A DNA stretch of 64,000 bases, taken from the NCBI GenBank assembly GCA_041498815.1, contig JBGQJC010000001.1, forward strand, positions 49,773 through 113,772, read 5' to 3'. Below the pieces are notes generated by a model. The model did no database searches and was not told where the DNA came from. It worked only from the letters and a program-made list of their open reading frames with translations. This document shows, in pieces, positions 2,665 through 62,000 of the stretch. The position numbers were made by a program, and so were the translations under genes. Origin of the DNA: Alphaproteobacteria bacterium. Its GTDB lineage: Bacteria > Pseudomonadota > Alphaproteobacteria > DATDPM01. Numbering within the stretch: the stretch's first letter is position 1; each line of letters begins with the position of its first letter.

Positions 2665-4011
2665 TTAATGCCGGGTTTGGGCGGCGGTGCGGCTGCAACG
2701 GGGCGGTTTGTTGATCAGGCCCCAGCCGAAGGTGTCGTCCCGGCCCGGCGGCCCCAGGTCCACGGCCTCGCGGCTCAAGGAATGGCGGAAATTGTCGGCG
2801 GAGGTCGCGCCGCCCGCGGCGATGTCGGCCGCGATCCGGCTCGTCAAATACGGCACGGCGAAAGAGGTGCCGCTCTGGAACTTCCCGCCGCCCGGCACCG
2901 CCGTCCACATCTGCACCCCGGGGGCGGCAAAAGCGACATAGGATCCGCGGTTGGCAAAGGAATAGATGGCATCCGTCGAATCGATGGCGGTGACGCCGAT
3001 CACTTGCTCATAGGCCGCCGGAAACGCGGGCCGGTCATAAGTGCCCCAGTTGCCGACGGCGGCGGCCAGCACCATGCCGCGGCTTGACGCCTGGTTGACC
3101 GCTTCGTGCAGAATCCGGTTGTCGGCCCCGGCCATGCTGAGATTCACGGCCTGCACATGCGCCGACGACAGCCAGTCGATGGCCTTCACCATCGCGATCA
3201 CATCGGCGACTTCGGCGCCCTGGTCGTTGAACGTGAAGATGTTCCCGGCCAGCAGCTCGGCGCCCGGCAAAAGCCCGCCGAAGCCCTGGGGATCGGGCTT
3301 GCCAACCAGCATCGCCGCGATGGCGGTGCCGTGGTCCGCGGGCGCCGGCGTGCGCGTGGGCAGTATGAACGACCGGTACATGATTTTCTGGCCGGCAAGG
3401 GCGGGGTGCGTGACATCGACGGGCGTGTCCACCATGCCGATGCGCAATCCCTCGCCGCAGGCCGCATCGATACCGGACCAGCCGATCGCGGTGCGCGCCA
3501 GGCTTTGATCGGATTCGCCGCGGGCGGTTTGGAACTGGTGGTTGGCGTCGATGATCACGCCCGGGAATTGCCGGCGAAGGGCTGCGACCGCCGCCGGCAC
3601 CGGCATCCCGGCGGGCGTGGCCAGCCGGAGCACATCGAGCGACAAGGCGGCAAAATGCAATTTTTCCAGAGTCCGGAAGCCCGCCGCCTCGAACCCCTCC
3701 GGCGCATTGGCGACCACGACTTCGTTCGGCTCGAACCAGGTTTCGGGCGCAAATGCGTTTCTCGTTTCTGGCCTCGTTTCTGGCCTCGCTCCGGGCCTCG
3801 GCCCATTCGGGCCGGAAGTCTTTGGCGCGCCCGGTTGCGCGGTTGGCTGTCCCGGCACCTCGCGCAGTTCCTTCAATTGGCCTTGCGAGTCGTATTCGAG
3901 AATCGAGGAATCCGCGTGCGCCAGTGCCCGCGCGCCAACAACGGCGGCTCCCGCCACCAGCAGCAGTGCGGCGGTGCGTAAAGAAAATTTCGTAAATATT
4001 TTCCAACACAT
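2665..4011 (-). CDS. secreted subtilisin-like serine protease (peptidase S8)
   Basis: N-terminal signal peptide. The catalytic triad blocks are GMVDTPVD (Asp), HGTAIAAML (His) and GTSFAVPY (Ser). An internal RPETRPETR tandem repeat is present. Confidence 0.85.
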   Translation of the reverse strand: MCWKIFTKFSLRTAALLLVAGAAVVGARALAHADSSILEYDSQGQLKELREVPGQPTAQPGAPKTSGPNGPRPGARPETRPETRNAFAPETWFEPNEVVVANAPEGFEAAGFRTLEKLHFAALSLDVLRLATPAGMPVPAAVAALRRQFPGVIIDANHQFQTARGESDQSLARTAIGWSGIDAACGEGLRIGMVDTPVDVTHPALAGQKIMYRSFILPTRTPAPADHGTAIAAMLVGKPDPQGFGGLLPGAELLAGNIFTFNDQGAEVADVIAMVKAIDWLSSAHVQAVNLSMAGADNRILHEAVNQASSRGMVLAAAVGNWGTYDRPAFPAAYEQVIGVTAIDSTDAIYSFANRGSYVAFAAPGVQMWTAVPGGGKFQSGTSFAVPYLTSRIAADIAAGGATSADNFRHSLSREAVDLGPPGRDDTFGWGLINKPPRCSRTAAQTRH

Positions 4012-6519: not shown

Positions 6520-6655
6520 GCCTCGGGAGGCTAGGCAAGACTCCGGGGCGGCGACAAATCACGACTGCGATACCATGGCCCTCCTCCGCCGTCCGGCAAC
6601 TATTTGAGCGGCCCAGGATGGACGGGTATTCGCGCGCCGGGCTAGAACACCCCTG

Positions 6656-6745
6656 GATGGGTGGCCGAGCGGTTTAAGGTACCGGTCTTGAAAACCGGAA
6701 AACCCGCAAGGGTTTCGTGGGTTCGAATCCCACCCCATCCGCCAG
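6656..6745 (+). tRNA. tRNA-Ser (anticodon UGA), 90 nt with long variable arm and encoded CCA
   Basis: Acceptor stem ggatggg/cccatcc, anticodon loop cuUGAaa, a long extra arm and the T-arm ggttcgaatcc. Confidence 0.9.
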
Positions 6746-6976
6746 TTATACCGCAACCCGTTGATCTTCCAGCAAGCTGCTGATCCAGCAAACTTTTTTG
6801 TTCCTGGTTGTTACACCAACCTGTTACACCGGGAGCATGAAAGACATGAGCAAACATCCCCGATTGGTGGCCCGTGGTCGCCGCTATTATTTCCGCGCCA
6901 AAATCCCTGCCGATCTCGTTGAGCATGTGCCCCTAACCAGCGAGGGTAGCCCTTTTGGACGGTTGGGACGGATCGG

Positions 6977-7927
6977 GTGTCAACGAAATCGACGCCAGCA
7001 CGTTCCAAATCGTCGAAACTGGCCAGATCATTCGGAAGATCAGCTAGCGGTATCTTCGTGAAATGGACATATCCATGCGCGTTCACATGCGCGCCAGTAT
7101 CGAGTTCGTTGGCGAGCGGAGACGTGGAGGGAACGGCGGTGTGGAAGAGGATTGTGCGGGCGATTCGCGACGCACTCGTTTCGCCAGCACACGATGACGA
7201 GTACATTTCGCGAGAGTTATTTCACTTCGTTGGGCGTACGCATCCGGACAACGACGAAGCCAATTACGGGATTCTGTCAAAGATAATTTCGTCGCGAACG
7301 GTATCGCATCCGCCTCACAACAGCGACTGGGGCAAAATTAGCTATACGATCACTTCGACGGGCGGATTACTCGAAGGGACGCTCATTGAGCCGACGATTA
7401 CATGCTACAGCGATATCCCGTTGCGCAGCCTGCGAATCCATATTGAGAAATACGGCAAATTTGGTCTTTCATTTCATCGCGAGCCTTTGATTTTTCATGG
7501 CGCTAGGCCCGTCACTTATGTGCCGGTCGATTATGGGCCGGGCAATGTTCACGACTCTCCAGCGCAGGGGCGGTATTTAATCGCAGGCTTCGAGGCAGCA
7601 TATCGTGGCTTTATACGTCACATTTATGATAATGAAGCTCGGGCTGTGAGATCAAGCGTTATTGGCAAAGTGGCCGAAAATCGCGCTCAAACAGTTGAGG
7701 CCGTCAAACGCATCTTTGAGAAAGATTTTCTGGCTTTCATAAAAACGTATGATGACCGACTCCCGAAGGATCATCCAAACAACTACTACATGGAACGTGA
7801 GTGGCGGAAACTCGGGAACTTCCAGTTTACGCCGGATCAAGTAATCAGGGTGGTTGTTCCTTCTGCCTATCAAAACCAGATCGCTCGCGCGTTTCCGAAC
7901 TATGTAGATAAAATCTACACGATCTAG
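6977..7927 (+). CDS. hypothetical protein, sole cargo of the low-GC islet at tRNA-Ser (start uncertain; GTG at 7139 possible)
   Basis: The ORF is markedly AT-richer than its flanks from about 7180 to 7930. It has no ATG inside until residue 270. The C-terminal block is NYYMEREWRKLGNFQF. No family could be assigned confidently. Confidence 0.6.
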   Translation: MSTKSTPARSKSSKLARSFGRSASGIFVKWTYPCAFTCAPVSSSLASGDVEGTAVWKRIVRAIRDALVSPAHDDEYISRELFHFVGRTHPDNDEANYGILSKIISSRTVSHPPHNSDWGKISYTITSTGGLLEGTLIEPTITCYSDIPLRSLRIHIEKYGKFGLSFHREPLIFHGARPVTYVPVDYGPGNVHDSPAQGRYLIAGFEAAYRGFIRHIYDNEARAVRSSVIGKVAENRAQTVEAVKRIFEKDFLAFIKTYDDRLPKDHPNNYYMEREWRKLGNFQFTPDQVIRVVVPSAYQNQIARAFPNYVDKIYTI

Positions 7928-8234
7928 AAAATCGCACCTCTATCGAATAGCGAGTGCAGTTAGTTCATTGCACGGTGCTGCGCCTGGGAGCTACAAGCCG
8001 GGATACGCGAGCTTCTCAAGCGCCTCGCGCTTCACACTCAAAGACGCTCCGCCCGAGTACATGCCATACGTTGTCGTTGGCTTGTCGTGCCCGATAATGT
8101 CCGCCGCTACACCCTCGGGCACCCCGGCGTTCTCCAACAGTGTTGCGACTGCTACCTCAAACTGTTACACCAGACGGGCAACTATGGCCTAAAAAAGCTA
8201 GGATTTCCGCTGGTTTCAGCGTCTCGCTGGCTTC

Positions 8235-8250
8235 TCCCACCCCATCCGCC
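8235..8250 (+). repeat. 16-bp direct repeat of the tRNA-Ser 3' end (attR-like) closing the islet
   Basis: tcccaccccatccgcc is identical to tRNA-Ser positions 6729-6744. Confidence 0.55.
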
Positions 8251-8479
8251 GGCCTTCGCGGCTTCGAAGCTTCGCCGGGCGCCGGCACGCCAATTCGCAG
8301 CTTTGCCTGGGCAATCATGGCGCCTTTGTCACGAATTCGCAGCGCCCGGGGTGGCGCCGGAGCGGCGGATTCCGGGATTTTCCAGCCGCCCATTTCTGTA
8401 CTCGATCCCGCTCGCCGTCTGGTATCATGAATGCAATCGGGCGTTGCGTGAAAGCTTTGCGTCCGGCCGCGGCAAAGCT

Positions 8480-10621
8480 ATGGCGGAAATCGAGCAAAAA
8501 TTCGGCGAGGAAGAGGCGGCGAAGGTCCGCGCGTGCCTGGCGAAGGTGATTGCGAGCGAGGTCTTCGCCCAGGCCAAGCGTCAGAAGCGCTTGCTCGAGT
8601 ACCTGACCGCCGAGACATTGGCCGGCCGCGCCAATCTGCTCAAGGGATATACCATCGGAGTCGAGGTATTCGACCGCGACCCGAGCTTCGATCCCGGCAT
8701 CGACGCGATCGTCCGGGTCGAAGCCGCACGGCTCCGGAACAAGCTCTTGGAATATTACGCCGCAGATGGCAGTTCGGATCCCATCCGCATCGAATTGCCG
8801 AAGGGCTCTTACTTCGTCCGGGTCTCCTACCGCGGCGGCGAAACTGGCCGGCAACCGGAAGCGCCGCCGGTAACGCGAAGGCTGGCCGCCATTCTTTGCG
8901 CGGATGTGAAGGGCTACAGCCATTTGATGGAGAAGGACGAGGGGGCAACCGTTCGTACCTTGAGCTCTCATGGGCATGTCATCGCGGGACTGATGGACAG
9001 TCACAGCGGGCGGATCGTCAGCACGGCCGGAGACGGATTTTTGGCCGAATTCGGCAGCGTCGTGGACGCCGTAAACTGCGCGGTCGCCATTCAGCGCAAG
9101 CTTGGCGAGGAAAATGCCGCGCTCGAAGGCGATAGCCGTTTGGATTACCGGATCGGCATAAATCTTGGGGACATCATCATTCAGGAGAAAACCGTTTTCG
9201 GGGACGGAGTGAATATATCCGCTCGGCTCGAATCTTTGGCGAGACCGGGCAACATTTGCATTTCCGGCAGCGTCTACGATCAGGTCAAACGCAAATTGCC
9301 GCTGTCTTATGAGGACGCAGGCCTCCAAAAGCTCAAGAACATCGAGGAGCCGGTCCACGTCTATCATATTCGCATCGCCGGGCCGTTGCCGCCTGCAGCC
9401 CCCCTTCCGGCGCCGCCCGGGATCTCGCCATCCGCTCTCGTAGCGCCCACGGATAAGCCCTCGCTCGCGGTCCTGCCCTTCGCCAACATGAGCAGCGATC
9501 CGGAGCAGGAATATTTTGCCGACGGCATCACCGAAGACTTGATCACCGAATTTTCCAAGCTGTCCGGATTGTTCGTCATCGCCCGCCATTCCGCTTTCGT
9601 CTACAAGGGCGTGAGGAAGAACATCCAGGAGATCGGGAAGGAACTGGGGGTCCGTTACCTGATCGAGGGCAGCGTCCGGCGCGCGGGCGAGCGGGTCCGG
9701 ATCACGGCGCAGTTGATCGACGCCGCATCCGGCGCCCATGTTTGGGCCGAACGCTACGATCGCGACCTCAAGGACATCTTCGACGTCCAGGACGACGTCA
9801 CCCGGCGCATCGTGGATACGCTGCACGTGACACTTTCGCCCGTCGAATCCCAGCGCATCGGCCACGAGGGCACGGTGAGCATCGAGGCCCACGACATGAT
9901 GCTGCGGGGCCTCGAGCGGTTCTGGACGTATTCGCCGGATGGAACCGCCGACGCGCAGGCGCTCTTCCTCAAGGCATTGGAGCTCGACCCGAATTATGCC
10001 GCGGCGCACGGCTGGGTGGCGCGGACGATGGTCTATCAATGGGCGATGAGATGGATCGAAGGCGACATTCTGGATCGGGCGCTTGAGCACGCGACGGCGG
10101 CGGTTCGATTGGACGATCACCTTCCGTTCAGCTATTTCGCGCTGGGCTGGGTCCTGCTGTGGCGCAGGCAAAAGGAAGAGGCGATTGCCGCCGGCCGCCG
10201 CGCGGTGGCGCTGGATCCGAACAACGCCGACTCTCAAATGTTCTTGTCCCTGAGCCTCAGTGCCGCGGACCGCGGGGAAGAGTCGTTGACCTATATCACG
10301 AGCGCCATGCGGCTCAATCCGCATCCGGCGCTGCTTTATGTCTTCGCGCTCGGTCAGTGCTACTACGTCATGAAAAAGTACGATGAGGCGATCGCCGCCT
10401 TCAAATGGGGCGTCCAGTTGGGCGACCAGTTCCCGCCCAACCACCTCTATCTCGCCGCGATTTACAGCGAGCTGGGGCGCACCGAAGAGGCGGCCGCGGA
10501 AAGAGACAGGACTTTCGCGGCGGCGGGCAGCCGGAAACTGCCGGTCATCAAAATGATGATGTTCGAGGGTGAAACCAGCCGCCGGTTAGAGGAAAACTCG
10601 AAACGCATTGGGCTGGCGTAA
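8480..10621 (+). CDS. class III adenylate/guanylate cyclase with N-terminal winged-helix regulator-like domain, TolB-N-like domain and C-terminal TPR repeats
   Basis: CHD cyclase block: LAAILCADVKGYS...STAGDGFLAEFGS...GINLGD. The N-terminus MAEIEQKFGEEE... resembles a DNA-binding transcription-activator domain. The C-terminal repeats are TPR-like. Confidence 0.85.
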   Translation: MAEIEQKFGEEEAAKVRACLAKVIASEVFAQAKRQKRLLEYLTAETLAGRANLLKGYTIGVEVFDRDPSFDPGIDAIVRVEAARLRNKLLEYYAADGSSDPIRIELPKGSYFVRVSYRGGETGRQPEAPPVTRRLAAILCADVKGYSHLMEKDEGATVRTLSSHGHVIAGLMDSHSGRIVSTAGDGFLAEFGSVVDAVNCAVAIQRKLGEENAALEGDSRLDYRIGINLGDIIIQEKTVFGDGVNISARLESLARPGNICISGSVYDQVKRKLPLSYEDAGLQKLKNIEEPVHVYHIRIAGPLPPAAPLPAPPGISPSALVAPTDKPSLAVLPFANMSSDPEQEYFADGITEDLITEFSKLSGLFVIARHSAFVYKGVRKNIQEIGKELGVRYLIEGSVRRAGERVRITAQLIDAASGAHVWAERYDRDLKDIFDVQDDVTRRIVDTLHVTLSPVESQRIGHEGTVSIEAHDMMLRGLERFWTYSPDGTADAQALFLKALELDPNYAAAHGWVARTMVYQWAMRWIEGDILDRALEHATAAVRLDDHLPFSYFALGWVLLWRRQKEEAIAAGRRAVALDPNNADSQMFLSLSLSAADRGEESLTYITSAMRLNPHPALLYVFALGQCYYVMKKYDEAIAAFKWGVQLGDQFPPNHLYLAAIYSELGRTEEAAAERDRTFAAAGSRKLPVIKMMMFEGETSRRLEENSKRIGLA

Positions 10622-11208: not shown

Positions 11209-12552
11209 TCAAACCGCGATCACGTAATCGAACCAGAAGGGCCCTTCGGTAAATCCGGGCACCGGCTTGGGCGCCGGGCCGTCGGGCGCCCCGGCAACGT
11301 GGATCGAATCGCTGCGGACGACTCCCTTGGCCTTGTTCTTTAGCGCGTCCATCAATTTCCCGAAGGGGATCGAGGGCCAGGGCTTGTTCTGCGTCGAAAT
11401 CATCGCCGCGAATCGCCCTTGGGTCATTTTCTCCAACGCGCTTTTCGGGGTCGCGTTGTGGCTCCCGTGGTGGCCGACCTTGTAGAAATCGACGCTCGCC
11501 AGGATGTCCTTGGCCTCCGGAGATTCGATCCAGGATTGCCAATTTCCGTATTGGGCGTCCCCCGGGAACAGCAGGTTCCGCCCCTTGTAGGAGAAAAGCG
11601 TTACCAGGCTGGTGTTGTTCACCGCCTGATCCAGCGTGAACGCCAGTCCTTCCGGGTCCCCCGCCATTTGCTCCAGCGCCGCCGCGTCCATCTTGGACAG
11701 GATTCCGGACGGGTAATCCTTGGCGCTTGCGTTCCACTTCTTCGCATTCGGGAACGGGGCGACGGCGTTCACCGTTTCGGCGGCGCTGCCGGCAAGCCGG
11801 AGGAATCGGTCGCCGGCCGGCGGGTCCATCTTGGCGAGGAATTTGGGGTCGCGCGGCGGCCCCAGCACGCGCACGGAAAGCCCGGCGATTCCGGCCGCGT
11901 TCTCGAGCTTGTCGCCGGCTTGATAAAATCGGACCCGGCCTCCGGAGATGCCGTTCTTCAGCAATGCCATGGCTTCGGCATTCGGGGCGAGATTTTGGAT
12001 CGCGTATTGCGCCTGCGCGTCCACTTTGGACATCGCCAGGAAGTGGTGCTCAAGCAACCCGATCAGGGCGAGCTGCTTTCTTTTGAGCTTCGCGGCGGCC
12101 GCGTCGTCCGGGTTTTCGGTCCAGGGCATCCACACTTCACCCACCGACAGTTTCCGGAACGCGTCGCCGAAGCGGCCGAATCCCGACACGTGATCTTGAT
12201 GGGCGTGGGTGGCGATCACGAGCGCGAGCCTGCCGCCGGATTCGCGGGCGATGTCGTTGACCGCATCGCCGATGGTCTTGGCGTCTCCCTGAGAATGCAC
12301 GCCGCAGTCGACCAGGATATGCGCCGCCCCGGATTCGGTCGGCAGCGACAACAGGAAGCAATCGCCGAATCCCACCCGGTACATCCGGATGCGGATTTGG
12401 CCGGCATTCGCGCCGGCCGGACCCGGACGCTTGGCGCGCGGCGCCGGCGTTCGCGCGTTTCTGCGAGGCGCTTTTCCCACATTCCGGGCGCGGGCCCTGC
12501 CCTTCCGGGCCGTCTGGCGCGGCTTTGCGCGTTTTCGCGGCGGTCTCGCCAT
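11209..12552 (-). CDS. MBL-fold metallo-hydrolase (alternative start at 12384)
   Basis: HAHQDHVSG (HxHxDH) and a distal VGHHGSHN block. The long start at 12552 has a GGGGA Shine-Dalgarno and lies 3 nt after the upstream stop, so the two genes are translationally coupled. Confidence 0.75.
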   Translation of the reverse strand: MARPPRKRAKPRQTARKGRARARNVGKAPRRNARTPAPRAKRPGPAGANAGQIRIRMYRVGFGDCFLLSLPTESGAAHILVDCGVHSQGDAKTIGDAVNDIARESGGRLALVIATHAHQDHVSGFGRFGDAFRKLSVGEVWMPWTENPDDAAAAKLKRKQLALIGLLEHHFLAMSKVDAQAQYAIQNLAPNAEAMALLKNGISGGRVRFYQAGDKLENAAGIAGLSVRVLGPPRDPKFLAKMDPPAGDRFLRLAGSAAETVNAVAPFPNAKKWNASAKDYPSGILSKMDAAALEQMAGDPEGLAFTLDQAVNNTSLVTLFSYKGRNLLFPGDAQYGNWQSWIESPEAKDILASVDFYKVGHHGSHNATPKSALEKMTQGRFAAMISTQNKPWPSIPFGKLMDALKNKAKGVVRSDSIHVAGAPDGPAPKPVPGFTEGPFWFDYVIAV

Positions 12553-59187: not shown

Positions 59188-59257
59188 GGCGACATCCGCG
59201 GGCGATCATGCAATTGCATGGTTTCGGTGTCAGGAGATTCAAAATCGAATGGTGAGC

Positions 59258-59296
59258 CTGGCGTCTACGATCTCGTCAACGAGGGGTGTTAGGGCG
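59258..59296 (+). repeat. direct repeat copy C
   Basis: ggcgtctacgatctcgtcaacgaggggtgttaggg. Confidence 0.8.
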
Positions 59297-59315
59297 GCGG
59301 GCAACGGCGGGTAAT

Positions 59316-59690
59316 TTAACGACAACTCTCGATGTTGCCTCCCCGGTCTGCACCGCAAGCGGAGTTGCCAAAGACGGTGTTGTTATTGATCGTTGCGGAG
59401 GCGCAATCGGTTACTTCGACACTCCAGTACTGGCTGGTACCATTTCCGAGGTCTCTCCTGCACAGCGCTCTGGCGTATACTGCTCCTTCTTGCTGCTGGT
59501 TCGGAACAACCCCTTTTTGCGGCACGAGAGATAGGCGAAGGATATTCTTGTCCAGCACACTGTCGTCCCGAAGTGTGATCTCTGTCGAATTTTTCAGGAG
59601 AGCGAGTCGCGCCTGATCATTCGAGTCAAGGTTGCACCCGGTGAGAGACAAGACCATAAAGAGAACACCGAAGCATTGAGTCTTTATCAT
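59316..59690 (-). CDS. lipoprotein (hypothetical), AT-richer
   Basis: Lipobox LSLTGC and four Cys. Confidence 0.55.
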   Translation of the reverse strand: MIKTQCFGVLFMVLSLTGCNLDSNDQARLALLKNSTEITLRDDSVLDKNILRLSLVPQKGVVPNQQQEGAVYARALCRRDLGNGTSQYWSVEVTDCASATINNNTVFGNSACGADRGGNIESCR

Positions 59691-59763
59691 TTTTATCCTC
59701 GCTTTTTTGCCGTGTTCTGATTTGCCAGGAGAGGACTATTCTTGCCCAATTGGAGGCCAGTAA

Positions 59764-59913
59764 CATGTCCCGCCATGAAATCGTGTTGGGCAGGAAAAGC
59801 AAACCGCTATGGAGTGCCGCTCGGTCAGTCGCCCCGAGCGCATGGGATTTAGGCCGGTATTCCACTGGGGCGCACAAGGTCCCGAGGACGTCGAAATCGT
59901 GGATTACCACTGA
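59764..59913 (+). pseudogene. 5'-truncated higB-like toxin remnant (only the C-terminal ~25-50 codons retained)
   Basis: A frame ending in TGA at 59911-13 reads ...MGFRPVFHWGAQGPEDVEIVDYH, which is the characteristic HigB/RelE-family C-terminus. A stop lies at 59761 and no room remains for the N-terminal two thirds. Confidence 0.45.
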
Positions 59914-59938
59914 CGGTTTCTTGTCGAGGACAACAGCC

Positions 59939-60232
59939 ATGCCAAGCCCCAAGCCCATCCACCCCGGTGTCGTTCTCAAAGAGGACGTGATGGACGAGCT
60001 CAAGCTCAGTGCCAACGCCTTGGCGCTGGAGCTGCACGTACCCGCGAACAGGATCACCGGGATCGTCAATGGCGAGCGCGCCATCACGCTGGAGACGGCG
60101 CTGCGATTGGAGCGCTATCTCGGCGCCTCGGCCGACTTCTGGCTGAACCTTCAGAGCCGGTACGAATTGGAGGCCGCTTCGGGGCTGCGCCGGCGCGTGA
60201 AGCGCGAGGTCCGGCCGCGGAAGATGGCTTGA
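59939..60232 (+). CDS. higA: HigA-family antitoxin (XRE-type HTH)
   Basis: MPSPKPIHPGVVLKEDVMDELKLSANALALELHVPANRITGIVNGERAITLETALRLERYLGASADFWLNLQSRYELE. Confidence 0.8.
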   Translation: MPSPKPIHPGVVLKEDVMDELKLSANALALELHVPANRITGIVNGERAITLETALRLERYLGASADFWLNLQSRYELEAASGLRRRVKREVRPRKMA

Positions 60233-60366
60233 GAGGCGCGGGACGGAGGCGCGGGCCAAAAGAGAGCGATCTCTATTAGGGCGATTCTTGAACGGAGGCG
60301 CGGGCGAAAGTAGGCCGTGGCGATTAAGGTGGCACAGATTGTGGGGATGCCTGAAATTTCACGCTC

Positions 60367-60843
60367 TTAGAATTGCCTTTGTGCAAGGCCTTTCCTTATG
60401 CGTTTAAGGCGGCGCGTTTGCTCACTTTGAATCTTCTTCAGCACCTTCGTGAGATCAGCGTCACGATGGAACTGCCCGCTTACTGAATTCCCAGGAGGAC
60501 GTGCGACACGCAGCAGTATGGACTCGATGTCCTTGAGATAACGAACTCGACCCACGCGGAAGATCGCGAAGCTGTCCCATTTGGCCCGGTGTTTGTTCTT
60601 TGTATGACCCAGGAGTCTCCAATACAGGTTTTTCGCTAGGCCGACGTAGTAGAGGGTTTTACGCCTGTAGAGAAGATAAATGCCTGAATACCCCCGCGTG
60701 ATTTCTTCAAGTCCGTGTTTGAAGGTTGGTTCGTAAAGAAGATCGATCGGAAGCCGCGCCGATACGCCCTTCACCAAGGCGCCCTTGCTCGAACCTTTCT
60801 TGATCTTGCGGTGCGTACGGAATCGTTGCCGTTTCTTTGGCAT
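60367..60843 (-). CDS. GIY-YIG nuclease family protein
   Basis: GIYLLYRRKTLYYVGLAKNLYWRLLGH (GIY ... YVG ... R) with a basic N-terminus. AT-richer. Confidence 0.7.
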   Translation of the reverse strand: MPKKRQRFRTHRKIKKGSSKGALVKGVSARLPIDLLYEPTFKHGLEEITRGYSGIYLLYRRKTLYYVGLAKNLYWRLLGHTKNKHRAKWDSFAIFRVGRVRYLKDIESILLRVARPPGNSVSGQFHRDADLTKVLKKIQSEQTRRLKRIRKGLAQRQF

Positions 60844-60989
60844 AGGCACCCACTGAAGAGGTCTAACTTCGGCCCCGTGATATTGTAACGATGCGGCAAG
60901 CGTTGGGCTAGTCCAGCATACTACGGTGGGCGAGCGCTTGGTCCGTTTTGGACGCCGCCACGAGCCGGAAAGATTTGGCGCCATAGCTC

Positions 60990-61018
60990 GCGCCGGCGTC
61001 TATGATCTCGTCAACGAG
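60990..61018 (+). repeat. direct repeat copy D (shortest; 28 bp core) fused to the start of the next gene
   Basis: gccggcgtctatgatctcgtcaacgagg followed immediately by tacgaATG. Confidence 0.7.
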
Positions 61019-61024
61019 GTACGA

Positions 61025-61309
61025 ATGAAGACTTTGATCTACATCCTTGCCGTGACTGTATTGGTTGGCTGTGCAGGGGGTCCCGTTGGTTGGGGGGGCA
61101 CTGATGAGGTGCTTTTTTCCGACAAGGATACGATTAAGATTCAATGGGACAACACGGTAACTAGTGAAGACGCCGTACGTCAGAAGGCGATAGCTCACTG
61201 TGCAAGGACGAACCGCGGGGCTCAAGTCGTTGATGCAACGTCTGACCCATTTACCTTTGGGTTGATTCAATCGAAGACATGGAAATGCACTGAGTTGCAC
61301 GCTAACTAA
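61025..61309 (+). CDS. lipoprotein (hypothetical, 94 aa)
   Basis: Lipobox LVGCAG. Its Shine-Dalgarno is supplied by the repeat core (GAGG). Confidence 0.55.
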   Translation: MKTLIYILAVTVLVGCAGGPVGWGGTDEVLFSDKDTIKIQWDNTVTSEDAVRQKAIAHCARTNRGAQVVDATSDPFTFGLIQSKTWKCTELHAN

Positions 61310-61339
61310 CCGACCAAACGGCCGCTAAAATAGAAGATT

Positions 61340-61393
61340 TGGTGAGCCCGGAAGAAGTCGAGCCCGCGGCCCTCTGATTAAAAGTCAGATGCT
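61340..61393 (-). repeat. partial duplicate of the tRNA-Lys 3' two-thirds (att-like)
   Basis: tggtgagccc plus a diverged T-arm plus ggccctctgattaaaagtcagatgct, matching 61926-61979 of the intact gene. Confidence 0.7.
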
Positions 61394-61894
61394 TTAGTGT
61401 GCCAATACCTTGGCGATGCAGAAAGCTCCTGCGATGAAAAAACCAAACGACGCAAACGCAAAAATGATCATTGCAATAGCAGTGCCTCTCGTAGCGTGTG
61501 CTAACCAGTTAAGTGGCTTGAGTTTGTCAGCGTCCGTCGAAACCTCGGCGAGAGCACGCACGTTTTTAAACGTGACGAAGCTTTGATGGAAATAAGCCAC
61601 GAGGCCTGCAAAACCAGCAAGAATTACACCCCATAAGAACGGGCGCATGCCTTGTAGGACTTGCGACAATACATTTTCTTTCCCGGCTTTGTCCCAAAGC
61701 TGACCTACGAATGCGAGCAGCGCAATGACTGCGCCTGCATTGAGCACTACGGCTGTGCGTAGGGCGACTAGGCCGATCTCGCCAGCCATGCGGTCACTAT
61801 GTAACTGGGACTCAAATCGGGCCTGCCAGTGTTGCTCCTGGCGGCGGAGAGTGGCTCGATAACGCTCAAGTTCTTTTTCTTCGTCGAGTGTCAC
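61394..61894 (-). CDS. membrane protein (hypothetical), AT-richer, between the partial and intact tRNA-Lys
   Basis: 166 aa with three C-terminal TM helices. Confidence 0.5.
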   Translation of the reverse strand: MTLDEEKELERYRATLRRQEQHWQARFESQLHSDRMAGEIGLVALRTAVVLNAGAVIALLAFVGQLWDKAGKENVLSQVLQGMRPFLWGVILAGFAGLVAYFHQSFVTFKNVRALAEVSTDADKLKPLNWLAHATRGTAIAMIIFAFASFGFFIAGAFCIAKVLAH

Positions 61895-61925
61895 CGATAA
61901 TCCACGCGGCTAGTGATTAGCGCTT

Positions 61926-62000
61926 TGGTGAGCCCGCCGGGGATCGAACCCGGGGCCCTCTGATTAAAAGTCAGATGCTCTACCGCTGAGCTACGGGCTC
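61926..62000 (-). tRNA. tRNA-Lys (anticodon UUU), 75 nt with encoded CCA
   Basis: The reverse complement gives the acceptor GAGCCCG/CGGGCTC, the D-arm GCTCAGCGGTAGAGC, the anticodon loop CTTTTAA and the T-arm CCGGGTTCGATCCCCGG. Confidence 0.9.

Follow-up and report, generated by a model that had tools for sequence, protein, structure and literature searches.

An eroded tRNA-Ser islet with a solo AbiGi-family gene of predicted ADP-ribosyltransferase fold

The lactococcal abortive-infection system AbiG is bicistronic, consisting of abiGi and abiGii (PMC13064643; PMC3985639). It blocks phage transcription and is triggered by a major tail protein; a 2026 review devoted to the Abi systems of lactococci gives its mechanism as unknown and finds no similarity of structure or function for AbiGi (PMC13064643). 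Because neither lactococcal AbiG protein is toxic in Escherichia coli (PMC3985639), the Pfam label of AbiGi as an 'antitoxin' is speculative. A very distant relative of AbiGi is encoded in a stretch of 64,000 nucleotides (64 kb) from an alphaproteobacterial contig (JBGQJC010000001.1), referred to here as the window. There it is the one intact gene of a small, AT-rich islet that adjoins a tRNA-Ser(UGA) gene. The region 6744-8250 is rather probably the eroded remains of a small tRNA-integrating element, in whose interior an AbiGi gene with a predicted ADP-ribosyltransferase (ART) fold would act as a solo abortive-infection effector.

AbiGi has already been placed among proteins of this fold. A 2025 survey lists the family (PF10899) among known ART-like families, near DUF2971 and DarT (PMC12522546). 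DUF2971 is a predicted DNA-acting ART family that the literature sets beside AbiGi, with an H / Y / ExE pattern (PMC12522546). DarT, the single-stranded DNA thymidine ADP-ribosyltransferase of the DarTG system, and Tpt1 (KptA), an RNA 2'-phosphotransferase with an NAD+ lobe, provide further points of comparison. For the surrounding DNA, the closest counterparts are tRNA-targeting islands with a DUF6538-type integrase, of which the metagenomic element L183 is the clearest intact example.

Remains of a tRNA-integrating element

The islet and its bounding tRNA gene comprise the following features, given as window coordinates and strand.

6655..6744, +: tRNA-Ser(UGA), whose 3' end is the integration target (ARAGORN, Rfam RF00005)
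6728..6743, +: attL core, exact 16-nt repeat TCCCACCCCATCCGCC, with attR as its sole other copy in the window
6778..6800, +: terminator-like hairpin with T-run in the left arm of the element, just past the tRNA (pattern scan only)
6809..6830, +: left-arm pair TGTTACACC-N4-TGTTACACC, 6 nt upstream of the integrase 1 ATG, putative arm-type integrase binding sites
6837..6926, +: integrase 1 (int1) remnant, first 30 codons MKDMSKHPRLVARGRRYYFRAKIPADLVEH, DUF6538-type N-terminus (Pfam DUF6538, E 6e-6)
6946..7138, no strand: spacer between the int1 remnant and the cargo gene, with a GGAGGG ribosome-binding site at about 7127-7132
7139..7927, +: intact cargo gene for a 262-aa AbiGi-family protein (PF10899) with a predicted ADP-ribosyltransferase fold
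7991..8152, -: integrase 2 (int2) remnant, last ~52 codons and stop, VATLLENAGVPEGVAADIIGHDKPTTTYGMYSGGASLSVKREALEKLAYPGL* (translation of 8149-7994; PHROG integrase, E 6e-4)
8150..8171, +: right-arm sites, TGCTACCTC (degenerate) and then an exact TGTTACACC at 8163-8171, with 72 nt between it and the attR core
8235..8250, +: attR core, where the 16-nt tRNA 3' end recurs (repeat search)

The tRNA gene is complete (Rfam score 61 bits), and it alone matched in an Rfam scan of the islet. The 16-mer TCCCACCCCATCCGCC from its 3' end has exactly two copies in the 64 kb, even when up to two mismatches are allowed; shuffled sequence leads one to expect 0.09, and none of 100 shuffles held two matches. 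Between the two copies lie about 1.49 kb (6745-8234) with a GC content of 0.522, against 0.633 for the whole window, and the islet is one of the two lowest-GC 1.5-kb stretches found there. Flanking genes have a GC content of 0.61-0.66. The cargo gene has a GC of 0.496 and a third-position GC (GC3) of 0.54, whereas the GC3 of its neighbours is 0.78-0.85.

A first-pass annotation of this DNA had described an AT-rich islet bounded by a 16-bp repeat of the tRNA 3' end, and had taken the duplication for the attL/attR scar of a tyrosine integrase in a decayed or trans-mobilised island. This description is borne out. The repeat is real, with its second copy placed exactly and its first copy one nucleotide off (6728-6743 in place of 6729-6744); the difference in composition holds, the scar is genuine, and the element is eroded and without autonomous movement. 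The accompanying statement that no integrase is present was wrong, as remnants of two integrases and conserved arm-type sites are found inside the islet.

Three copies of the 9-mer TGTTACACC are present in the 64 kb (6809, 6822 and 8163), where 0.05 are expected. All of them lie on the + strand and within the islet, and they are probably arm-type integrase binding sites. A metagenome scan for the pair TGTTACACC-N4-TGTTACACC, filtered with tblastn and blastn, recovered relatives of the element. In L183 (1627-9080), a 7.36-kb element at tRNA-Ser(CGA), the tRNA gene is followed by the TGTTACACC pair, then GGGAGC-ATG and an intact 593-aa DUF6538+Phage_integrase gene. Its interior holds, in order, an unknown gene, a resolvase, an Abi_C/AbiJ-like gene (PADLOC, 74 bits), an AAA_25 ATPase and a 359-aa unknown gene. 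At the right end lies the pair CGTTACCCC-N4-TGTTACACC, of which the first copy is degenerate and the second perfect, and 72 nt beyond it the tRNA 3' end is repeated over 17 nt (attR). The distance from the right-hand TGTTACACC to attR is identical in the window islet, and alignment of the two shows homology through both the left and the right arms. Since L183 has the same layout, the same motifs and the same 72-nt distance, the islet is a deletion derivative of this family of tRNA-integrating elements.

The TGTTACACC pair followed by GGGAGC-ATG also precedes intact integrase genes in three further relatives (L131, L126 and L104). Besides L183, elements at tRNA-Ser include L131 and L152, while in L126 and L104 the tRNA is cut off by the contig end. 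Other relatives are found at tRNA-Thr (L130, L191) and tRNA-Trp (L134, L168), and the integrase reading frame of L130 is short (57 aa). L183-type elements can be described as a compact, defence-carrying family that targets tRNA-Ser, tRNA-Thr and tRNA-Trp. The window islet shares with them the position of the att core, the TGTTACACC motifs with their spacings and the start of the integrase gene. In contrast to these islands, it has lost about 95% of the integrase together with all other backbone genes, and holds foreign material in the form of abiGi and a fragment of a second integrase.

The two integrase fragments face in opposite directions, the 5' end of int1 on the + strand and the 3' end of int2 on the - strand. 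The int1 fragment starts with an ATG at 6837 and is 63% identical to the N-terminus of the L183 integrase; in DNA alignments, homology to the relatives is gone by about 6945. Convergent with the cargo gene and truncated immediately past the HxxR motif, the int2 fragment shares 84-88% identity with the C-termini of metagenomic integrases P0121-P0128. Four intact relatives (L183, L131, L104 and L126) share 63-100% identity with one another over the N-terminal 30 residues and 61-80% over the C-terminal 70 residues. Compared with the same four, the window N-fragment is 53-64% identical and the window C-fragment 29-35%. As the N-fragment fits these intact relatives while the C-fragment fits another group of integrases, the fragments derive, on sequence comparison, from two different integrases, and a single integrase split by inversion was dropped as an explanation on the same comparison. 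A query made by joining int1 and int2 returned C-terminal relatives only. Integrases of the int2 class also begin with a DUF6538 domain, though its sequence is unlike that of int1. Of the integrase gene that would mark a tRNA island next to attL, about 30 codons of int1 and about 52 of int2 are left, and neither their remaining parts nor an integrase of either class was found elsewhere in the window.

Truncated integrases of these classes are found in other contigs. C-terminal stubs of the int2 class (P0122, P0133 and P0146; 52-75 aa) lie in long contigs (L087 4630-6192; L088 203-361; L089 6001-6228), and one of these stubs immediately follows an intact P4-type integrase. Several end at nearly the same place, at VATLLENAG or shortly before it, which may be meaningful or may be an effect of open reading frame calling. 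A 57-aa N-terminal integrase stub is located at tRNA-Thr in L130 (43-375). In L091 (395-2593), a frameshift divides an int2-class integrase between two frames, one with DUF6538 (222 aa) and one with the catalytic domain (263 aa), with an Abi_C gene directly after it and a resolvase further along. The gene set shared by L091, of the int2 class, and L183, of the int1 class, suggests that both classes of integrase serve similar small defence islands.

The present islet is read as follows. An element of a family that inserts into the 3' ends of tRNA genes (Ser, Thr, Trp) by means of a ~590-aa DUF6538-type tyrosine integrase integrated at the 3' end of tRNA-Ser, and has since lost its integrase and backbone. 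Both of its ends are preserved, the left one as the attL core with two arm motifs and 30 integrase 1 codons, and the right one as the attR core with an arm motif at a distance of 72 nt. What lay between them has been lost or replaced, and a single intact gene is now found there beside the 3' part of another, opposite-facing integrase. The ends belong to the first element, and the interior, comprising the cargo gene and the convergent int2 stub, is of separate origin. The junctions of this interior segment lie at about 6945 and about 8150. As the islet encodes no complete integrase and the rest of the 64 kb has none of either class, the islet is presumably immobile unless a related enzyme is supplied in trans. 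At the right end, a degenerate second copy of the integrase 5' region was also considered and rejected, as the alignment similarity is confined to the arm motif. A promoter and terminator pattern scan of the islet gave nothing informative.

Comparison with related genomes yielded no empty site. Species-representative genomes were scanned with the flanking PHO4 (PF01384) phosphate transporter, and the best match was 74% identical (metagenome-assembled genomes of Chthoniobacterales/Verrucomicrobiota). None of the 12 loci checked has tRNA-Ser beside the transporter gene; synteny is not kept, and the species collection holds no close genome. Judged by these best transporter matches, the host is a Chthoniobacterales-like member of the Verrucomicrobiota. 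Exact-protein look-ups of the islet flanks returned the same locus again or no match. The other records of the locus (L001, L085 and L086) have the same arrangement, and there are no further records. The predicted attB junction GGTTCGAATCCCACCCCATCCGCC|GGCCTTCGCGGC, which joins the tRNA end to the right flank, had no match in the metagenome collection.

The AbiGi protein and its predicted chemistry

The cargo gene begins with a GTG at 7139, downstream of GGAGGG, and this 262-aa form is the one recorded at NCBI and in Logan (P0001). The first-pass annotation had proposed a protein of about 316 aa from an open reading frame at 6977/7139-7927. The frame exists, but the longer product is unsupported because homologues begin near residue 18-20 of the 262-aa form. 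The + frame upstream of 7139 is not conserved among homologues, and a 131-aa minus-strand open reading frame in the spacer has no Pfam or PADLOC match.

The protein is a member of Pfam PF10899 (AbiGi), with 55.5 bits against a gathering cut-off of 22.4 (E 9.6e-15, residues 87-234), and this is the only Pfam family to match at E<=1. PF10899 is present in all 120 of the homologues listed. The PADLOC AbiGi model matches partially, over residues 86-128 only (E 1.5e-10), and the NCBIfam model for the lactococcal AbiGI equivalog (NF042957) scores 18.9 bits, below its cut-off of 300. A word-indexed search found 287 relatives, the closest of which, after the protein itself, is just 55% identical. In a profile search of 1.84 billion cluster representatives, 3033 matched at E<=1e-3, of which 494 reached E<=1e-30; almost all consist of a single domain and are 230-270 aa long (~245 aa). 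The earlier view of the protein as a candidate novelty without a named family is contradicted by the Pfam membership and by these thousands of relatives, while its guess of an Abi-like function was a good one, since the gene falls in a family named for abortive infection. The C-terminal block NYYMEREWRKLGNFQF, singled out at the same time as distinctive, is confirmed and shows the strongest conservation of any motif in the family.

Structure comparison of the predicted model recognised the ART fold, including the split beta-sheet of the ART core. The solved structures nearest to this high-confidence model are DarT and Tpt1, followed by CopC, OspC3, pertussis toxin S1 and heat-labile enterotoxin. 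Foldseek searches against the PDB and against viral structures gave nothing significant. H29 ends strand 26-30 (LFHFVG), T88-C89-Y90-S91-D92 lies on or at strand 87-91, ahead of helix 95-105, and E219-R-E221, at the start of strand 221-225, corresponds to the EREWR block noted earlier. H29, C89, E219 and E221 are invariant in 120 sequences. In the model, the conserved residues appear to fall in the canonical order of ART motifs (H/R on strand 1, Y or S-x-S on strand 2 ahead of a helix, and E or ExE where a late strand begins), and they would be expected to cluster around an NAD+ pocket. The protein may accordingly be predicted to bind NAD+ and to ADP-ribosylate a nucleic acid or protein target; its DarT-like structural neighbours favour nucleic acid.

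The window protein differs from each of the ART families to which it may be compared. It shows the H / Y / ExE pattern reported beside DUF2971, yet it is not a member of that family by Pfam. It has no match to the DarT family (PF14487) and carries ExE, not a single Glu, and no DarG macrodomain gene is found near it. A Tpt1 Pfam match is also absent, and the separate RNA-binding lobe of Tpt1 is not evident. With lactococcal AbiGi it shares the Pfam family, a central block TC[YF]xDIP...H..KYG.FG that fits the PADLOC and NCBIfam models, and carriage on mobile elements. The two are nonetheless very distant, and the AbiGii partner of the lactococcal system is missing both here and at eight homologue loci.

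No AbiGii was found among the open reading frames of the islet or its neighbours, nor was an AbiGii Pfam family found among the called neighbour genes at these eight loci (L002-L004, L213-L217). There the AbiGi gene stands alone, often beside HicAB or DUF433/DUF5615 toxin-antitoxin pairs. In four of them (L213-L216), the AbiGi homologue P0039 lies beside HicA/HicB with the same unannotated flanks (184/196 aa upstream, 136 aa downstream). These surroundings could be a conserved small module of that lineage, and the arrangement is not seen around the window gene. Homologues of the cargo gene are rare in viral contigs, and tblastn of the cargo against phage and plasmid collections gave no match.

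Solo defence and its alternatives

In the proposed mechanism, the cargo protein would act upon phage infection by ADP-ribosylating a target and shutting off phage gene expression or replication, as an abortive-infection effector does. It would work singly, without the AbiGii partner of the lactococcal system. A defence context is visible among the relatives, as L183 carries an AbiJ-like gene and Abi_C is found on a contig that has an int2-class integrase. The model and the setting of the gene suggest a role in defence by way of ADP-ribosylation. A more specific proposal, put forward tentatively and more probably wrong than right, is that AbiGi proteins of the solo ~245-aa subfamily could be NAD+-dependent ADP-ribosyltransferases like DarT, self-contained in that they would modify phage or host nucleic acid without AbiGii or a macrodomain antidote.

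Two alternatives concern the history of the locus. The 16-nt repeat might be a coincidence and the low-GC gene an old resident that was never inserted. The lack of an empty site for comparison leaves room for this, but such a reading is highly improbable given the repeat statistics (0.09 expected), three element-specific motifs confined to the two ends, two integrase remnants and the strong compositional contrast; moreover, an intact element elsewhere has an identical architecture with the same 72-nt spacing. The gene might also be the orphaned half of a two-gene AbiG system, an 'antitoxin' AbiGi left without function when AbiGii was lost in the deletions that destroyed the integrases. Canonical AbiG is indeed bicistronic (PMC13064643; PMC3985639), deletions in the islet are clear and no AbiGii is detected nearby. 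Nevertheless, the window copy keeps its full length and every invariant residue; the homologue loci have no AbiGii Pfam family among their called neighbours either, and the 494 subfamily clusters at E<=1e-30 are nearly all single-domain. The toxin and antitoxin labels are themselves speculative, as neither lactococcal protein is toxic in E. coli (PMC3985639). An orphaned half is therefore considered improbable.

The remaining alternatives concern the activity of the protein. The first-pass annotation had pointed to RSLRIH as an R-x4-H element of the kind seen in HEPN RNases, and a novel HEPN-type RNase that uses this string is one alternative. The string R96-S-L-R-I-H101 is present and H101 is nearly invariant, yet across the family H101 alone is conserved: position 96 is mostly acidic (D/E) in homologues and position 99 is variable. 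An R-x4-6-H motif in an all-alpha domain is hence found neither by conservation nor by fold, since the model is mixed alpha/beta with ADP-ribosyltransferases as its structural neighbours, and Pfam and PADLOC give no HEPN match; very little weight can be given to this activity. Much the same applies to an RNase T2-like nuclease, proposed from the likeness of YMEREWRKLGN to the CAS II motif FWEHEWNKHGTC. Actibind, an RNase T2, was the top match over the motif in a PDB profile search, but its E of 0.27 falls short of significance, a variable position stands opposite the catalytic His of K-H-G and the fold search gives ADP-ribosyltransferases and no RNase T2, so that this nuclease is scarcely credible. 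An ART-fold enzyme with a role other than defence, such as a regulator of a host process, an addiction factor or toxin that serves the element, or an RNA 2'-phosphotransferase-like repair enzyme, shares the predicted fold and carries more weight, though it too is unlikely. The gene lies in a horizontally acquired islet whose element relatives carry Abi genes, its homologues adjoin toxin-antitoxin modules, and the family takes its name from a proven defence system. A repair enzyme is further disfavoured by the missing Tpt1 Pfam match, the residues of the Tpt1 RNA lobe not having been looked for.

With a solo abortive-infection effector as the preferred reading, the locus is a fairly ordinary defence islet, combining a decayed tRNA island of known type with a solo member of the known AbiGi ART-fold family. 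As the ART class of AbiGi is already in the literature, the present result is a confirmation and extension, not a discovery. Its wider value is modest, in that it adds one more member, assigned to the Verrucomicrobiota, to a large, uncharacterised, partner-less branch of AbiGi. It also offers a worked example of the persistence of a defence gene, in which the delivering element is reduced to att ends and two integrase stubs and the cargo gene is intact. The high-confidence model makes it a readily testable hypothesis that AbiG-type defence acts by ADP-ribosylation. If true, the self-contained DarT-like activity would at last explain how abortive-infection systems of the AbiG class work.

Neighbouring genes and a second mini-islet

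The gene downstream of the islet encodes an adenylate/guanylate cyclase-TPR protein (8087-10621). Gene callers put its start either within the islet (GTG 8087, 844 aa) or slightly beyond it (JGI, 756 aa), and the conserved-looking start is the ATG at 8480 (MAEIEQKF...). With a start at 8480, the islet would lie directly against the upstream sequence of the gene, whose promoter it may provide or disrupt.

Two neighbours match domain-level PADLOC models. A protein with a metallo-beta-lactamase (MBL) fold, at 11209-12552 (-), matches the LmuA, Avs1a and DRT-associated MBL models (best E 4e-23, partial), and an S8 peptidase, at 2665-4011 (-), matches the 'subtilase' model (E 2.5e-19). No complete defence system was recognised among these matches of neighbour genes. 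The gene table of the L085 record places a radical-SAM/SPASM gene beside the S8 peptidase.

A second mini-islet is found at 61339-62000, where a tRNA-Lys(UUU) gene (61926-62000, -) is accompanied by a partial copy of its 3' ~57 nt at 61339-61395. Over the anticodon arm the copy is exact for a block of 26 nt, and in the T arm it has mismatches. The intervening ~0.5 kb has a GC content of ~0.50 and contains one open reading frame of 166 aa (61394-61894, -) with hydrophobic stretches and no family match; it looks like another one-gene, tRNA-associated remnant. A low-GC zone continues over 59200-61400 (GC 0.50-0.56) with several small open reading frames that have no Pfam match. One frame in this zone, at 60367-60984 (-), has a weak GIY-YIG match (E 0.006), and the zone may be further remnant mobile DNA.

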